From an uncultured Nitrososphaeraceae archaeon (lineage in GTDB: Archaea > Thermoproteota > Nitrososphaeria > Nitrososphaerales > Nitrososphaeraceae): a stretch of DNA of 64,000 bases. The first letter of the stretch is position 1. Each line of letters opens with the position of its first letter. Shown here one piece after another: positions 23,723 through 30,082 of this stretch. Location: assembly GCA_963779615.1 (NCBI GenBank), contig CAVZZA010000003.1, forward strand, positions 608,001-672,000. Reading direction: 5' to 3'. The notes beneath the pieces were generated by a model that was given only the letters and a program-made list of their open reading frames with translations, did no database searches and was not told the origin of the DNA. The translations under genes were made by a program, and so were the position numbers.

Positions 23723-24649
23723 ATGAATAAAAATATGCAAATATCAAAGTTGTTGATACCAAAATTTGTTATCGAGAACAACTGCAATATTCAAAGCGTA
23801 TTTGATTTACTGCAGCATTGTGATGAAAAAAAACATGATCAAACTGCGGTCATGGCAAATGACAATTATGTATCAGTGCAACAGTTAAACTATCACATAG
23901 GTTGCGATAATGATGGTGATGGCGATGACTCATACCCTTTATCCACTAATGATCTCCGCAATAACGACAAGAAAATTCTATCGATATTGAATGAGGAAAT
24001 GTGGTCAGCCTATTCCTTCAAGGCTCTTGAGAGAAAACTCGATATCCACCAACAGAGCCTTGCAAGAGCATTAAAAAGACTTGTAGATCTGGATTTGATT
24101 GAAAAGACACCCGCAGGATACAAACTAATTAAAAAAAACATATTTTTATCAAATACAATACTGCAAAATCGCCAATTGACGGAAGAAGAGGCAGAAGAGG
24201 CCGGACCTGAGCTATTTGAAACAGGAAAAACAAGAAAAAGATTTAATCAATTAATTCAGGTGCGTATTCCCATCAGGAACAACACAGAATTAGTAGTAAA
24301 TCAATTGGTTGGAAAATGGTTTGGCAGCTTAAGATGGTTTGGATTGATTAAAAAGGAAACTGGTGTAACACTTCAATGGGTAGCAATTAACAAATACAGC
24401 AGCAACAAGTTATTTCAAATCAATGTAAATATCGTATCAGAATATATCGTTATAGAGTCCAATGCCGTTTCCGATAAAGAAAAGATTGAGGCAATGTCAT
24501 GTTCAAACAGAATAGTCGGCGAGATCACAAAAATTCTTCAAGGTAACCTACAACAAGAATGCGAAATACCAGACGAGTTTACGACACCAAAGAACCATGT
24601 GCCAACTTATACCAGCAAGGTTAAACGCAATTTCAAGGGAAATAACTAA
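23723..24649 (+). CDS. winged-helix domain protein
   Basis: YSFKALERKLDIHQQSLARALKRLVDLDLIEKTPAGY is a wHTH; C-terminal domain unknown. Confidence 0.7.
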   Translation: MNKNMQISKLLIPKFVIENNCNIQSVFDLLQHCDEKKHDQTAVMANDNYVSVQQLNYHIGCDNDGDGDDSYPLSTNDLRNNDKKILSILNEEMWSAYSFKALERKLDIHQQSLARALKRLVDLDLIEKTPAGYKLIKKNIFLSNTILQNRQLTEEEAEEAGPELFETGKTRKRFNQLIQVRIPIRNNTELVVNQLVGKWFGSLRWFGLIKKETGVTLQWVAINKYSSNKLFQINVNIVSEYIVIESNAVSDKEKIEAMSCSNRIVGEITKILQGNLQQECEIPDEFTTPKNHVPTYTSKVKRNFKGNN

Positions 24650-24833: not shown

Positions 24834-25520
24834 TTATTGAATGCTCTTTGAAAATCCTCCCAATGTAACCATCCCTAACTCTACAACAGGTTTTTCACCG
24901 ATTGCCTTTTCTATTGCGCTGTTGGCTAGTTCCAAGGCCTCTTTGGGGGTCATATTTTTTCCATATCCCTTTAGGATTACATCCATGGCAATATCCGATG
25001 AATAACCTATGGCAAATCCAGAACCCCTTAGATAGGTTCCACCAGGGTCGACCTGATACAGATGAATTCCGTTTTCGTCTACACCCGCGATTATTATTGA
25101 AGCAGCTTGCGGCCTAACCGCATATATGGTATAGTTATGCAGGTAGGAGCTGAGGTGTTTTGCTATAGATTTTATGTCTATGGGACTCTCATATGAAAGT
25201 CTGTGTTTCTGTGATTGTAACCTGATTTCTTCAATCAATTGCTCAATATCTGCTATATAGCCGGACCCTGTCGCTCCTATATGTTTGTCAATAGTGAATA
25301 TCTTTTCATTGGGATCAACCAAAGGCAAGGTGGGTTTGATGTGACTTGAAATCAACGCAAATTCCGTGGTTTTTATTCCAATGGTCGTTGATCCCCTATT
25401 TACTGCCTCCAACGCGCTATCTACTAATACAAGTCTGCCTCCCTGCCCATAGTAATATGGGTACCTGTTGCCATTCCCAAAACTATTCTGGGACCCTATT
25501 GAATTGCCATCTTCTGACAT
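24834..25520 (-). CDS. psmA: divergent 20S proteasome alpha subunit
   Basis: GRLxxVxxAxEAVxRGSTTIGIK, EKIFTIDKHIG, SGYIAD, VRP, IAGVD, LYQVDPGG; start ATG 25520 or GTG 25538. Confidence 0.88.
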   Translation of the reverse strand: MSEDGNSIGSQNSFGNGNRYPYYYGQGGRLVLVDSALEAVNRGSTTIGIKTTEFALISSHIKPTLPLVDPNEKIFTIDKHIGATGSGYIADIEQLIEEIRLQSQKHRLSYESPIDIKSIAKHLSSYLHNYTIYAVRPQAASIIIAGVDENGIHLYQVDPGGTYLRGSGFAIGYSSDIAMDVILKGYGKNMTPKEALELANSAIEKAIGEKPVVELGMVTLGGFSKSIQ

Positions 25521-25543
25521 GTTACCTGACAACCCCACTCACA

Positions 25544-26122
25544 TCATATGACTTGGCTTATTGCCAACGCATTTGGAATAACCAAGACGTCAAATCCATT
25601 TCCAGAGCCGGGGTCTCGCTCCATTGCGGCTAAAACGGCTTTTTTTGCAACCTCTTTTGCATCCTCATTTGTCATTTTACCATCATACAGACTTTCAAGA
25701 ACACCATATGCTATGGGGGCACCAGAACCAGATGCCGCATAGTCTTCATTAGTTATTGCGCCACTCATGTCAGCAACATTGACATGGGCGCCTTGGGAAT
25801 CAACCCCCGCAACCAGCAGCTCCACATAATATGGCTGGTAGTTCTTAAGGCCAGAATACGCCAAATTTGCAATCAGCCTTGAAGACTCCCTTACACTCAA
25901 AGGAAACCCTCGTCGCAGTTCTATTAACTTTCTTTCGGCAGTTGCAACCTTAATCAGATGTTCAGCGTCGGAAAGTTGCCCAGCAATTGCAATTGCCAGT
26001 GTGTCGTCTATTTTGGATATTTTTTGCACTATTTTAGATCCAATAAAGAAACCCTTGCTTGCCCTTTTGTCCGATGCGAGCACAACTCCTTCCTTTGTTT
26101 TTATACCCACTATTGTTGTCAT
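25544..26122 (-). CDS. psmB: 20S proteasome beta subunit without propeptide
   Basis: M-TTIVG start; Thr1, Asp17 and Lys33 at canonical spacing; SGSG and RDPGSG motifs. Confidence 0.92.
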   Translation of the reverse strand: MTTIVGIKTKEGVVLASDKRASKGFFIGSKIVQKISKIDDTLAIAIAGQLSDAEHLIKVATAERKLIELRRGFPLSVRESSRLIANLAYSGLKNYQPYYVELLVAGVDSQGAHVNVADMSGAITNEDYAASGSGAPIAYGVLESLYDGKMTNEDAKEVAKKAVLAAMERDPGSGNGFDVLVIPNALAISQVI

Positions 26123-26461
26123 CTTTTATTTCACTATACTATAGGATTACTCAAATTAATTGACCAAGACTTTTGCAAACAGGTCACACTTTAATAACAA
26201 TTGTTTTCAATCCAGAAGGCTAGAGCATCACATACAGCAATTTTTTGATGTTTGATATCCATCAGTAACACATTAATCAACAGAACAGGCTTTATGCCAA
26301 CGCCCTTTTCATAACAAAGATAGAGAGAAGGTATCTTTTTTAAAGGTTATAGGAACCCTTTTTATTCTCAAGAGCTGTTTTTTAAACCATAAAGATCATT
26401 TAAAAGAAATCAAAATTGATAGACAAGCCATAATGTCATTTGTTGTGACAACATATTCATA

Positions 26462-27181
26462 TCACCAAGGTTCAGGCTTGCCATCATAAAAAAATCCTCC
26501 GCTTGGGCCACCATCTGGCAGTGTGGCGGCCCACACAATACCTTTTGCACCCTCTTCCACCGGGCGTCCACCACGACCACCCATGTCGGTGGCAACCCAT
26601 CCGGGGTCAACCGAATTAACCAAGATGCCGGTTCCGCTTAATTCCGATGCCAACTTTCTTGTCAATGCGTTAAGTGCCACTTTCGAAATGCCATAGGCAG
26701 GGGTTCCACCCTCCATATAATGCAGCGAACCCGCACCGCTCGATACATTCACAATGCGACCATACCCATTTTTTCTCATGAGTGGAACAAAGGCTTGGCA
26801 AAGGAGCCAAGGACCATACAGGTTGGTTGCTAGCGCTTTGCATACCACTTCCAGGTCTGCGTTGACAGCAGACTGAAACGTATCATATAAAATTGCAGCA
26901 TTATTAACCAGCACATCAAGTCGTCCTAACTGTTGCTTTATTCTGCCAAATACATACTCTATGTCGTTTTTCGCAGAAACATCCAGTCGATAAAATACAA
27001 CATCCAGTCCTTTGTCTGTCAATTGCGTGGTGGCAACCTCACCCTTTGCAGTATCTCTGGAAGTCAATACAACAGTCAAACCCGATTGCGAAAGTTGTTT
27101 GCAGGTCTCAAACCCAATGCCCCTGTTTGCCCCCGTTACCAATGCAACTTTTTTATCCATTGTTTGTTTATCCATAAACAA
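26462..27181 (-). CDS. short-chain dehydrogenase/reductase (carbonyl reductase-like)
   Basis: TGANRGIG, NNAA, YGISK, PGWVATDMGG. Confidence 0.92.
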   Translation of the reverse strand: MFMDKQTMDKKVALVTGANRGIGFETCKQLSQSGLTVVLTSRDTAKGEVATTQLTDKGLDVVFYRLDVSAKNDIEYVFGRIKQQLGRLDVLVNNAAILYDTFQSAVNADLEVVCKALATNLYGPWLLCQAFVPLMRKNGYGRIVNVSSGAGSLHYMEGGTPAYGISKVALNALTRKLASELSGTGILVNSVDPGWVATDMGGRGGRPVEEGAKGIVWAATLPDGGPSGGFFYDGKPEPW

Positions 27182-28228: not shown

Positions 28229-30082
28229 ATGGATATATCTAACATGGCAAAAACGATGGATAATGACAACAGCGCGTCATCTTTTTTTTCCACTTTTGTT
28301 GACACATGCGAATTAATACGATTGACGCCGAGCAAAAACAAAAAGGTCGATTTAATCTCACAGTACATCTCACGTTTACAGGAACATTCACTGTCCACCG
28401 CAGTCTTGTTTTTGTCTGGAAAAACCTTTCCAAGGGGATCGCCATATAACCTGAACATAGGGTTTAGAACGATATTGCAGTCTCTGCTGGAAATTTCCAG
28501 TATAAACGATGCTGACGTCAGGAGAATCCATTTAGAGCATGGTGACATGGGGGCCATAGCAGAATACGCGGTATCCAAAAAGCAAGTGGTAACCATTCTT
28601 GACCAACTGGAGGGCAAAGGAGGGAGAGAGCAATTAACATTAAGCGATATGTCTACCCAATTCAAAAAAATAGCGAGCCTTAAAGGACAGCATTCCAACA
28701 ATGACAAGAAAAACATTTTGAAGGGACTGCTTATCCGGTGCTCTCCATTAGAATCAAAATATCTCGTCAAAATAATATCAAACGAAATGCGAATGGGATC
28801 GTACGAAGGTCTTGTTGAACTGGCCATTGCAAAAGCTTTTGACAGGGATGCCATGGATGTCAGGGAAGCAATGCTTGTCTCGGGGGATGTTGCAAATGTG
28901 GCTTTACTATCTAAGAGAAATTCATTGAACACAGCAACAATTGAGCCGTTTGTGCCAATGAGTTTTATGCTGGCAGATGTCATGTTTACTGCAGAAGAGA
29001 TAATTGAATATTTTGAAAAACCACTCGTATGCGAGTACAAATATGATGGTATTAGGGTACAAATGCACAAATTCGGACACAACTGTAAGATTTATTCCAG
29101 AAATCTTGCGGACATATCATATGCTTTTCCCGAGTTGGTTGACAACGCATTGCAGACCAGAATAAAAATGGAAGAAAGGCATCAAACAAAGGAAATTAAA
29201 AACACCAGTGAAAATGATGAAGTCGATGTTGACTTTATTTTGGATGGAGAATTGATAGCATTCAAAAACAACAAGCCCCTGCACTTTCAAGAGTTACAAA
29301 AACGACTAAGAAGGAAAAGCATGACAAAAGGCACTCTAACTGAAATACCGATACGTTACGTGGTATACGATACAATGTTCTTTGAAAAAAAACAGATGAT
29401 AAAGGAAACACTTGAAAACAGGAAAAAATCATTATCAAAACTTCTGTTTAAAGACTCAATCATGATCAATGCGCAGAGCGACACCATAACAACTGCAGGC
29501 GAAATGGTCTCTAAATTTAAAACGAGTAAGGAAAGTGGCCACGAGGGGCTGGTGATTAAGGATCCGGCCTCACAGTATCATCCTGGAAAAAGAGGAAGAC
29601 ACTGGATAAAACTAAAGGAAGAGCTGGACACGATTGACACCGTAATAGTGATGGCAGAATATGGCAATGGAAAGCGGGCTGGAACGCTTTCAGACTATAC
29701 TCTTGCGGTAAGGGGTATTTCCACTGAACCTGGGATGGACATAACAGGAGCAGGAGACGAAGGCCCTCTTTTTAACAATTTAAAAATTATCGGCAAGGCA
29801 TATTCGGGTCTTTCAGATAAAGAAATTAACTATGTGACGAACAAGTTGAGGTCGCTTATTATTCGTGACGAAGGTAACAGAATTATTGTAAAACCTGAAA
29901 CAATTTTAGAGGTTTCTTTTGATACAATCCAAAAAAGTAACCGGCATGATGGAGGATATGCACTTCGTTTTCCAAGAATAAAAAACATTCGATATGACAA
30001 AGAACTCAAAGATATTGACACGTTAGAAAAAATAAAGGTTATTTACGAGAATCAGTTTCACATTAAAAACAAACACGGATAA
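28229..30082 (+). CDS. lig: ATP-dependent DNA ligase (archaeal type with N-terminal DBD)
   Basis: motif I EYKYDGIR, III LDGEL, IIIa YD, IV EGLVIK, V WIKLK, VI ALRFPRI..IR. Confidence 0.95.
   Translation: MDISNMAKTMDNDNSASSFFSTFVDTCELIRLTPSKNKKVDLISQYISRLQEHSLSTAVLFLSGKTFPRGSPYNLNIGFRTILQSLLEISSINDADVRRIHLEHGDMGAIAEYAVSKKQVVTILDQLEGKGGREQLTLSDMSTQFKKIASLKGQHSNNDKKNILKGLLIRCSPLESKYLVKIISNEMRMGSYEGLVELAIAKAFDRDAMDVREAMLVSGDVANVALLSKRNSLNTATIEPFVPMSFMLADVMFTAEEIIEYFEKPLVCEYKYDGIRVQMHKFGHNCKIYSRNLADISYAFPELVDNALQTRIKMEERHQTKEIKNTSENDEVDVDFILDGELIAFKNNKPLHFQELQKRLRRKSMTKGTLTEIPIRYVVYDTMFFEKKQMIKETLENRKKSLSKLLFKDSIMINAQSDTITTAGEMVSKFKTSKESGHEGLVIKDPASQYHPGKRGRHWIKLKEELDTIDTVIVMAEYGNGKRAGTLSDYTLAVRGISTEPGMDITGAGDEGPLFNNLKIIGKAYSGLSDKEINYVTNKLRSLIIRDEGNRIIVKPETILEVSFDTIQKSNRHDGGYALRFPRIKNIRYDKELKDIDTLEKIKVIYENQFHIKNKHG

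Follow-up and report, generated by a model that had tools for sequence, protein, structure and literature searches.

The locus described here raises the question of whether an archaeon that holds a housekeeping proteasome also encodes a second one. The window, by which we mean the whole stretch of 64,000 nucleotides analysed, comes from a contig of an uncultured, soil ammonia-oxidising Nitrososphaeraceae archaeon and contains a psmB-psmA pair that a sequence-only reading had taken for an accessory, self-contained 20S-like particle. When we annotated the region, the two open reading frames were found, as that reading had placed them, co-oriented and 5 or 23 bases apart depending on the alpha start, and the following features were retained:

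23723..24649, plus strand: gene for a winged-helix (MarR-like) regulator whose C-terminal alpha/beta domain is conserved, from alignment, model and fold search.
24834..25520 (ATG, 228 aa) or 24834..25538 (GTG, 234 aa), minus strand: accessory proteasome alpha gene, from its ORF and PF00227.
25521..25543, minus strand: beta-alpha spacer of 23 bases, or 5 if the GTG start is used, with AGGT 5-8 bases before the alpha ATG.
25544..26122, minus strand: accessory proteasome beta gene, 192 aa, starting ATG-ACA-ACA (Met-Thr-Thr), without propeptide.
26159..26188, minus strand: conserved non-coding motif 5′ of beta (TGTGAC, 17 bases, GGTCAAT), a candidate operator or promoter element.

For alpha, the ATG at 25520 is favoured because most called homologues have 227-230 aa and because 12 of 13 same-genus loci show an M[ST]E start. 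In 11 other loci, according to the ORF calls, alpha overlaps beta, adjoins it directly or is separated from it by no more than 3 bases.

Both products belong to the same fold family as the canonical archaeal 20S subunits PsmA and PsmB (Archaeoglobus 1j2q, Methanocaldococcus 3h4p, Thermoplasma 1pma). Indeed, PF00227 was matched by beta at 163 bits (cut-off 22.4, 8e-48), which indicates the proteasome (Ntn-hydrolase) fold, and by alpha at 148.7 bits (2e-43), while the best PDB relatives were 1j2q_H for beta (1.5e-36) and 3h4p_A for alpha (5e-31). The NCBIfam equivalog cut-offs were reached by neither, beta scoring 205 bits with TIGR03634 (cut-off 224) and alpha 149.6 bits with TIGR03633 (cut-off 287.35). 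A genome-wide search recovered five PF00227 genes, namely the pair and three canonical ones, one YDR alpha and two propeptide-bearing betas. With these three present, all of them unlinked, the pair is accessory, as had been supposed. The same pattern of three plus two was seen in all the other genomes inspected (5/5), with an additional, weak sixth match in one; of the two housekeeping betas in these genomes, one has Thr1 and the other Ala at that position.

The phylogeny also separated the pair from the canonical subunits found in those genomes, as the sequence-only reading required: the accessory alphas formed one clade (13 rows, support 100/99) and the accessory betas another (12 rows, support 97/99), with broadly similar lineage groupings inside the two, and the accessory beta grouped, though weakly (88/82), as sister of the catalytic canonical beta. 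Lineage-specific indels separate accessory from canonical subunits as well, alpha lacking two residues before EKI and one before VRP, and beta having two additional residues. Both accessory genes are under strong purifying selection (dN/dS 0.04-0.09). The estimates were 0.041-0.077 for beta (3/3 close comparisons), 0.056-0.094 for alpha (4/13 comparisons, those with unsaturated dS) and 0.13 for the regulator (one comparison); they were taken from close pairs only because dS was saturated against more distant orthologues (12/13 comparisons of one set and 9/13 of the alpha set).

The most peculiar feature of beta is its amino terminus. The product begins with MTTIVG from an ATG start that has an in-frame stop one codon upstream, and its second residue falls opposite the first of 1j2q_H, a mature beta chain; both observations bear out the proposal that it is made without a propeptide. 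Alignment with canonical betas and with 1j2q_H showed equivalents of Thr1, Asp17, Lys33, Ser129, Asp166 and Ser169, together with the GSG stretch and RDPGSG, so that the catalytic set is kept, as the sequence-only reading had it; these catalytic residues were invariant in 13/13 accessory betas. The codon preceding Thr-Thr was a start codon in 23/23 distinct loci (ATG in 20, GTG in 2 and TTG in 1), and thus no precursor with a propeptide to be autolysed before Thr1 was found among them. All 23 loci also have an in-frame stop 1-49 codons 5′ of the beta start, with no alternative start in between in 11. In the other 12, an in-frame alternative start lies 3-36 codons upstream, and a short leader is therefore possible in those lineages. 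The upstream extensions in some database calls showed no conservation at the protein level and coincide with the conserved DNA motif. We consequently rejected a propeptide supplied by an upstream start, the window having a stop one codon upstream and the extensions elsewhere not being conserved as protein. A metagenome protein, P0121, that is 96% identical to the window beta carries Ile at the Thr1 position.

The alpha subunit keeps the part of the canonical machinery that concerns docking and appears to have lost much of the part that concerns opening. Tyr8, Pro17, Tyr26 and Lys66 are given here in Thermoplasma numbering, which we take to apply to the accessory alphas through the alignment. 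The N-terminal signature of the window alpha is replaced by RYPYYYGQGGRL, and over the same stretch the accessory alpha reads NRYPYYYGQGGRL where the genome's own canonical alpha reads YDRAITVFSPDGRL. No match to the PF10584 alpha signature (YDR...FSPxGRL) was found in the window alpha, whereas the genome's canonical alpha scored 52.9 bits; among four other accessory alphas, two gave no match, one reached 15.9 bits (cut-off 27.7) and one, of the Methanomethylicia type, 31.6 bits. Because the Methanomethylicia-type alphas thus keep a YDR-like signature, the rewritten gate does not extend to the accessory clade as a whole. The sequence-only reading had alpha losing both the YDR signature and Pro17, and only the first of these losses stood as a wider feature. 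Indeed, Pro17 is replaced by Gln in the window alpha and in 13/13 further same-genus loci, but is retained in the other 11 accessory alphas of an alignment of 12 that included the window; in these alignments the Pro17 loss is specific to the window's genus rather than a trait of the system, while the Tyr-Asp of YDR, the I-T positions and Tyr26 are generally lost outside the Methanomethylicia type.

The EKI lysine was invariant in 19/19 aligned alphas, and helix H0 was predicted at residues 31-42, ahead of the first strand, in a model with pLDDT 86. The retention of the EK (Lys66-equivalent) pocket and the absence of the last C-terminal helix, both asserted earlier, were upheld, the window alpha stopping directly after the last strand in the alignment and in the model. 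Gate opening in the Thermoplasma 20S is controlled, according to one study, by the YDR motif, the IT switch and the Pro17 loop together with Lys66 and Val24 (PMC12352868). The accessory alpha keeps helix H0 and the activator pocket (Gly19, Arg20, Leu21, Val24 and Lys66 equivalents), while the elements that set open and closed gates in canonical alphas (the Tyr-Asp of YDR, I-T, Tyr26 and, in the window's genus, Pro17) are replaced, and its entrance would therefore be controlled differently. Candidate states are a constitutively open entrance, one closed by the aromatic YPYYY stretch, or one opened by another partner. Gate opening by PAN, invoked in the sequence-only reading, did not hold up: no PAN above the family cut-off was found in this genome, which has Cdc48-like ATPases only, and gating by PAN therefore does not apply. 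Two of these ATPases end in Tyr-X, and the genome also encodes two PAC2/Pba-like proteins. PAN was accordingly rejected as partner of the accessory proteasome in this genome.

If the two subunits work together, they should be inherited together. Among 301 genomes of the order, accessory alpha was found in 75 and accessory beta in 73; both occurred in 73, alpha only in 2 and beta only in 0. Of those with alpha alone, one carries the gene at the start of a contig and the second has a completeness of 84%. These counts take in genomes flagged as unpublished (G072, G111, G228 and G346). Within three genera, alpha, beta and regulator were present or missing together: in g1 each of the three genes was found in 10/15 genomes, the same five lacking all three; in g20 each was found in 2/14; and in g30 the counts for the three genes were 22, 21 and 22 of 23 genomes. 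The two subunit genes always adjoin or overlap each other and are gained or lost as a pair, which gives indirect support to the proposed self-contained particle. The spread is patchy, the unit occurring in many Nitrososphaeraceae and Nitrosotalea-type genomes and being recorded, for two other families, as "not found in 0 of 74 and 66 of 73" genomes. It was also found in Caldarchaeales-type and Methanomethylicia-type genomes, and the open frames were intact across three archaeal lineages. The two further lineages and the regulator gene are additions to the sequence-only reading.

The regulator gene is convergent with alpha in the window and lies upstream of the pair, co-oriented with it, in most other lineages. 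A family match was found in 75/75 alpha-holding genomes, at most 3 kb from alpha in 56 of these, 3.6-29 kb away in 4 and on another contig in 15, and on this distribution the winged-helix gene appears to belong to a conserved three-gene unit with beta and alpha. The family also occurs in 68 pair-less genomes of the order (143 minus 75) and is therefore not exclusive to the operon. Its match to MarR_2 was weak (24.5 bits, cut-off 27). An alignment of 12 regulator sequences showed an invariant wHTH and invariant W/RW/W residues, and a fold search with the regulator model returned MarR chains at probability 1.00, but with E-values of at least 0.01; in this search against the PDB there was no match at E ≤0.001, and the C-terminal domain was unmatched. 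An Atlas search gave 'hypothetical protein' clusters only, with a MarR-type HTH in a minority of members. In lineages without the pair, relatives of the regulator adjoin HtrA-like proteases.

Upstream of beta, TGTGAC-N17-GGTCAAT was conserved at 80% or more in 15 aligned regions from four lineages. Exact matches in the 3.17-Mb genome numbered two (a control pattern gave none), and since the only other one lies inside an ORF, no regulon was inferred. Contigs from RNA libraries covered the regulator gene in four studies and pieces of beta in two of these, which is weak evidence given that such libraries can hold DNA. The alpha body (about 24877-25547) and most of beta were left uncovered by any RNA-library contig; the contigs sampled only small parts of the stretch, and on their own they are uninformative on expression.

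Taken together, we somewhat favour the prediction, made from the genes, that the pair forms a self-contained 20S-type particle under its own regulation, with a beta that matures through removal of Met. The three-gene unit (winged-helix regulator, beta, alpha) would thus encode a second 20S-type proteasome beside the housekeeping one. One transcript would yield beta and alpha in near-equal amounts, which would assemble with each other, and a methionine aminopeptidase would take the initiator Met off the Met-Thr1 beta, leaving a free catalytic Thr1 amine as in HslV, and hence no autocatalytic cleavage of a propeptide would be needed. With a single accessory beta, which bears Thr1, each of its rings is expected to have seven active sites. 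The adjacent regulator most likely controls the operon via the TGTGAC-N17-GGTCAAT candidate site, and the product would therefore be a conditionally expressed protease, probably serving protein quality control. Propeptides are thought to guard Thr1 against N-terminal acetylation; against the favoured reading, an exposed Thr1 would be inactive if it were N-terminally acetylated. A complex prediction for accessory alpha and beta scored 0.02, the mark being 0.32, and is evidence neither way. A further proposal, which we put forward tentatively and hold to be rather unlikely, is that of an old TACK paralogous proteasome that arose before Nitrososphaeria and Methanomethylicia diverged. It would be a 20S with neither propeptide nor YDR/I-T/Pro17 gate, with seven active sites per ring and an entrance permanently open or held by an aromatic Y/F cluster, and a dedicated winged-helix regulator family would turn it on for protein quality control.

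Compared with the canonical 20S, the pair shares the six catalytic positions listed above, the alpha helix H0 and the Lys66-type pocket. It differs in lacking a propeptide, in genes that, judged by their arrangement, would be co-transcribed beta then alpha, in an alpha without the PF10584 signature and the C-terminal helix and with Tyr-Asp of YDR, I-T and Tyr26 replaced, and in the dedicated regulator gene adjoining it. In HslV the catalytic Thr directly follows the initiator Met, and maturation consists of Met removal only. The accessory beta resembles HslV (and also Anbu and BPH) in this position of its Thr, and MTTIV resembles the start of the HslV models, which matched it weakly over residues 1-59 (24.7 bits for a cut-off of 137, 21.7 bits for one of 157.75). 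However, HslV functions with HslU and without any alpha partner, whereas an alpha-type subunit always accompanies the accessory beta. The actinobacterial prcB-prcA operon is likewise accessory and non-universal, with beta then alpha co-transcribed, and its betas have long propeptides. The accessory pair has the same gene order and is also non-universal, but its beta reaches only 72 bits against a bacterial family cut-off of 192, and no pup, mpa or paf was found beside the pair in the window and the other loci inspected.

The accessory subunits could instead replace canonical ones, or mix with them, within the 20S and give rise to condition-specific subtypes. Paralogous subunits do enter the same particle in Haloferax (alpha1/alpha2), Pyrococcus (beta1/beta2) and the eukaryotic immunoproteasome, and the pair resembles such paralogues (Haloferax alpha2, the Pyrococcus beta paralogues, immunoproteasome subunits) in consisting of extra genes that are probably condition-specific; the weak sister relationship of the accessory beta to the catalytic canonical beta points the same way, as do the general fold and the interface-forming secondary structure that the pair has kept. 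However, those paralogues are single replacement subunits, and such a subunit needs no matching partner from the other ring, while here a matched alpha-beta pair and its own regulator are inherited as one unit, alpha and beta being gained or lost only together and their genes being translationally coupled or adjacent in 12/12 loci. Each subunit moreover forms its own long-branched clade with matching internal groupings, and the indels mentioned above separate it from canonical subunits. We thus consider mixing or replacement unlikely.

A different architecture or chemistry seems improbable, whether a single alpha7-beta7 stack, an alpha-capped, beta-only HslV-like ring, or a specific processing enzyme or ligase. 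It would fit the propeptide-less Thr1, which is typical of HslV and other bacterial homologues, and an alpha that lacks the C-terminal helix and the canonical gate motifs. A ligase has a precedent among proteasome homologues in Connectase, as described in the part of the source covered (PMC7980362). However, the archaeal alpha and beta models fit both proteins far better than HslV does (for beta, 205 as against 24.7 bits), no residue of the catalytic set for hydrolysis is missing, and the best solved relatives are 20S subunits. Inactive or decaying duplicates without present function, a view already disfavoured, might explain the scores under the equivalog cut-offs, the many relatives without the unit and the Ile of P0121, but are very improbable in the face of the intact frames, the low dN/dS, the invariant catalytic residues and the conserved DNA motifs upstream.

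No description of the pair was found in the literature searched, in which supplements were outside the scope and the N. viennensis proteome tables may list the proteins. It is not described in Fuchs et al. 2021 (PMC8665760; Results part 1 and taxon-name look-ups), nor in the consulted portions of PMC3082918 and PMC7980362. Should the pair form its own particle, it would be a natural 20S without two features held central to proteasome biology. What the propeptide contributes to assembly and to the protection of Thr1 would become directly testable, and the loss of the YDR/I-T/Pro17 gate logic with retention of the activator pocket would amount to a natural experiment in which gating is uncoupled from docking. 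The patchy spread may bear on how soil ammonia oxidisers handle damaged proteins, and the regulator family is a candidate archaeal proteostasis regulator. The cultured ammonia oxidiser Nitrososphaera viennensis carries the unit, by the names that public sources give to identical proteins, and the system is therefore open to bench study.

The accessory beta and alpha genes and the gene of a winged-helix regulator, together termed the unit, occupy the following positions, and both subunit frames lie on the minus strand at exactly the coordinates that the sequence-only reading had given them.

26159-26188, minus strand: TGTGAC-N17-GGTCAAT, the first two conserved boxes upstream of beta
25544-26122, minus strand: accessory beta gene, 192 aa, ATG start, beginning MTTIVG
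24834-25538, minus strand: accessory alpha gene, 234 aa from a GTG, or 228 aa if from the ATG at 25520
23723-24649, plus strand: regulator ORF, convergent with alpha, with a weak MarR-type match

The gap between beta and alpha is 5 or 23 bases, depending on the alpha start; the ATG seems likelier than the GTG, since called homologues are mostly 227-230 aa long and an M[ST]E start is common to 12 of the 13 other loci of the genus. Both proteins match PF00227 (beta 8e-48, alpha 2e-43) and fall below the cut-offs of their nearest NCBIfam models, the archaeal beta equivalog (205 bits, cut-off 224) and the archaeal alpha equivalog (149.6 bits, cut-off 287). In public records the pair's genes go under proteasome subunit, 'Ntn hydrolase family protein' or hypothetical. 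The best-supported reading is that a regulated operon here encodes a second, self-contained 20S-type protease. Near the pair lie a short-chain dehydrogenase gene (adh_short, 1e-49; 26462-27181, minus strand) and an ORF at 28229-30082 (plus strand) that by eye resembles an ATP-dependent DNA ligase; neither was found again beside the pair in other lineages.

The window's genome (3.17 Mb in 5 contigs, 92.5% complete) holds five PF00227 genes, and the three outside the pair are on other contigs or far apart: a canonical alpha carrying YDRAITVFSPDGRL, a canonical beta with a propeptide whose last residue before TTT is Gly, and a second canonical beta in which Ala, behind a short leader, replaces Thr1. 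The same three-plus-two pattern recurs in all five other pair-bearing genomes checked, one of which has an additional, weak sixth match. In a maximum-likelihood tree of 53 rows (support as ultrafast bootstrap / SH-aLRT), the 13 accessory alphas form a single clade (100/99), as do the 12 accessory betas (97/99); both clades are separate from the canonical subunits of their own genomes, and their internal lineage groupings are broadly alike. The catalytic canonical beta is, with weak support (88/82), the sister of the accessory beta. The pair had been called accessory, and the unlinked canonical alpha and two betas, along with the separation of the clades, support this.

Beta had also been described as lacking a propeptide. 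In all 23 distinct accessory-beta loci surveyed, the codon preceding Thr-Thr is a start codon (ATG in 20, GTG in 2, TTG in 1) and an in-frame stop lies 1-49 codons upstream, with no alternative start in between in 11 of them; in the window the stop is one codon 5′ of the ATG, and the description stands. As judged from these sequences, the conserved feature before Thr-Thr is the start codon, not the methionine residue. In an alignment with the mature Archaeoglobus beta chain 1j2q_H, the first residue of that chain pairs with residue 2 of the window beta. Some database entries are longer (207-209 aa), with mutually dissimilar extensions. Some of these look alike at 'LVNKF'; this stretch coincides with a conserved DNA motif, which in the window cannot be read as part of a beta protein, and we rejected it as a propeptide. 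The window beta has Thr1, Asp17, Lys33, a GSG stretch and RDPGSG, and these are invariant in 13 of 13 accessory betas; the previously listed set (Thr1/Asp17/Lys33, SGSG, RDxxSG) is confirmed for the catalytic residues, GSG and RDxxSG. Methionine aminopeptidase cleaves off a Met that precedes Thr, and beta would be activated through such Met removal. P0121, a metagenomic protein with 96% identity to the window beta, starts M-I-T-I-V-G, with Ile replacing the catalytic Thr1, and is altered in other conserved stretches (e.g. ERDPGSG to EQDPCSG); these changes may be sequencing error or mark an inactive variant.

For alpha, we aligned the window protein, the canonical alpha of the same genome and 17 others (19 rows), with Thermoplasma residue numbers transferred through the alignment. 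The window alpha retains Arg10, Gly19, Arg20, Leu21, Val24 and the Lys of the EKI motif, and this Lys is invariant in all 19 rows, in agreement with the claim that the EK (Lys66-equivalent) pocket was kept. Tyr8 and Asp9 of YDR, the Ile12-Thr13 positions (Pro-Tyr here) and Tyr26 (Ser here) are replaced in the accessory alphas except the Methanomethylicia type. Loss of both YDR and Pro17 had been claimed: Tyr-Asp is indeed replaced, and Gln takes the place of Pro17 in the window alpha and at all 13 additional same-genus loci, but the remaining 11 accessory alphas in the alignment retain Pro17. Against PF10584, the Pfam alpha N-terminal signature (cut-off 27.7 bits), the canonical alpha of the window's genome scores 52.9 bits, the Methanomethylicia-type alpha 31.6 bits and the accessory alpha of locus L019 15.9 bits, below the cut-off; the window alpha and two further accessory alphas give no match. 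This spread, from no match to 31.6 bits, indicates that the N-terminal rewriting is graded over the accessory clade. In the AlphaFold model (15-row alignment, pLDDT 86, pTM 0.81), residues 1-21 are a disordered tail, helix H0 at 31-42 is followed by the usual strands and helices, and the chain stops right after the last strand; model and alignment both confirm the missing C-terminal helix. According to the passages of PMC12352868 on the Thermoplasma 20S particle, the open gate owes its stability to the YDR motif, the IT switch determines open and closed states, activation displaces Pro17, Lys66 binds activator C-termini, and the gate opens on filling of the pocket at Val24. Set against these roles, the kept and replaced residues indicate a retained docking pocket and altered gate-setting elements. 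In this genus the first 18 alpha residues form a long Ser/Asn/Gly-rich tail preceding RYPYYY (MSEDGNSIGSQNSFGNGN), about twice the length of that in other lineages and disordered in the model.

Gate opening by PAN, as invoked earlier, finds no counterpart in the window's genome, where nothing passes the TIGR01242 cut-off of 500 bits (the top score, 318.8 bits, comes from the AAA domain alone; in a control, 4 of 14 genomes pass). The hits are four double-AAA, Cdc48-like ORFs (L057-L060), one ending ...KIFYG, a hydrophobic-Tyr-X type end, and another ...LSQYR; two PAC2/Pba-like genes (L066-L067) are also present.

We searched for the accessory alpha with the window protein as query and E-value limits chosen above canonical-alpha scores; the counts take in the unpublished genomes G072, G111, G228 and G346, whose sequences were unused. 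It occurs in 16 of 24 other genomes of the genus, 70 of 121 of the family (12 of 18 genera), 75 of 301 of the order and 39 of 401 of the phylum. By family within the order, leaving out the window's genome, the counts are f1 43/73, f3 1/1, f4 6/9, f7 11/13, f13 7/73, f15 5/15 and f18 1/2, and it was not found in f10 (0/74), f9 (0/11) or f12 (0/10) of this sample; f29 (11/17) and f27 (21/32) are the sole additional families matching in the phylum sample. The names under which public sources list proteins identical in sequence to the locus proteins make f29 Caldarchaeum/Caldiarchaeum, f27 Methanomethylicia (Methanosuratincola, Methanomethylicus), f4 'Nitrosomirales', one f13 genus Nitrosotalea and genus g30 Nitrososphaera viennensis; homologues of the window proteins bear the name Nitrosocosmicus. 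Only 17 proteins among 1.84 billion representatives match the window alpha at E of 1e-30 or better, and the clade is narrow.

The regulator family profile matches 143 of the 301 genomes of the order, including all 75 with accessory alpha; the distance between regulator and alpha is up to 3 kb in 56 of these and 3.6-29 kb in 4, and in 15 the two are on different contigs. Alpha and beta are inherited together and the regulator mostly so: in genus g1 the same five genomes have none of the three genes and ten have all three, in g20 each gene is in 2 of 14 genomes, and in g30 alpha, beta and regulator are in 22, 21 and 22 of 23. The main rival explanation is that the accessory subunits go into the housekeeping particle, and the strict alpha-beta pairing makes it less likely. 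In the preferred reading, a second 20S-type protease, accessory alpha and beta would assemble together. Both subunits of L028, a locus of the Nitrosotalea-named f13 genus, nest among f1 and f4 (99/92, 99/98), and its own family has the unit in only 7 of 73 genomes; either transfer between soil lineages or many losses would account for this.

Regulator homologues adjoin the pair in 12 of 12 loci examined in full, upstream and co-oriented in loci of f3, f4, f15, f27 and f29 and the Nitrososphaera-type locus, convergent in the window genus and the Nitrosotalea-type locus. In all 12 proteins the winged-helix core is invariant, as are Trp/Arg-Trp/Trp in the C-terminal domain. The predicted structure has a pLDDT of 68 over its full length and high values within each of the two domains, and it looks like a two-domain winged-helix regulator; a fold search against the PDB returned nothing at E of 0.001 or better and gave no assignment for the C-terminal domain. 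The family also occurs apart from the pair, in 68 pair-less genomes, chiefly of f10 (54/74) and genus g28 (8/8). At both f10 loci examined (L063:3078-4902, L064:3370-4976) the homologue is directly upstream of a protease gene (305 aa, Trypsin_2 + PDZ, HtrA-like); at the one g28 locus examined no protease adjoins it. These two f10 loci, few as they are, suggest a tie to proteases in general. In the preferred reading the protease of the unit would probably serve protein quality control.

An alignment of the 93 bases before beta, with 15 loci from four lineages, shows three boxes of at least 80% conservation: TGTGAC, GGTCAAT.AAT and TC.ATA.TAT. The GTGAC and GGTCA halves are partly inverted repeats. 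The exact two-box pattern with a 14-24 base spacer has two sites in the genome, the second within an ORF, and a control pattern none. We infer a candidate promoter plus operator, through which the regulator would control the operon.

Comparisons with close relatives gave dN/dS of 0.041-0.077 for beta and 0.056-0.094 for alpha, that is, purifying selection, and 0.13 for the regulator (a single comparison). Four studies yielded RNA-library contigs, 90-99% alike, that cover the regulator gene, and two RNA runs contain pieces of beta (25614-25815 and 25757-25907); such libraries can contain DNA, and these contigs are a weak hint of expression.

The encoded protease would work like an archaeal 20S, but the pair departs from the canonical archaeal families in three of their defining features: propeptide autolysis, alpha N-terminal signature and equivalog scores. 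It has the propeptide-less Thr1 in common with HslV-type proteases, and its gene order with the actinobacterial proteasome operon, in which beta precedes alpha. Literature searches, with supplements outside their scope, found no description of the unit, including in the first part of the Results of PMC8665760, where a look-up of six taxon names also gave none, and in the passages of PMC7980362 matching our terms; the unit is relevant to proteasome and archaeal biologists.

The weak sixth PF00227 match, L056 (G027:C57:2656-3132; 40 bits, open frame of 274 aa), may be a distant proteasome homologue. The Ala-for-Thr1 canonical beta was present in 6 of 6 genomes examined (L003:1462-2061, L036, L039, L040, L042, L044), the first being that of the window's genome, on a different contig from the window. 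These proteins carry the motif G-A-T-T/A/V-V/L-G and Glu at position 17, and form their own clade (98/90); presumably they are non-catalytic and structural, giving mixed rings in the housekeeping particle.
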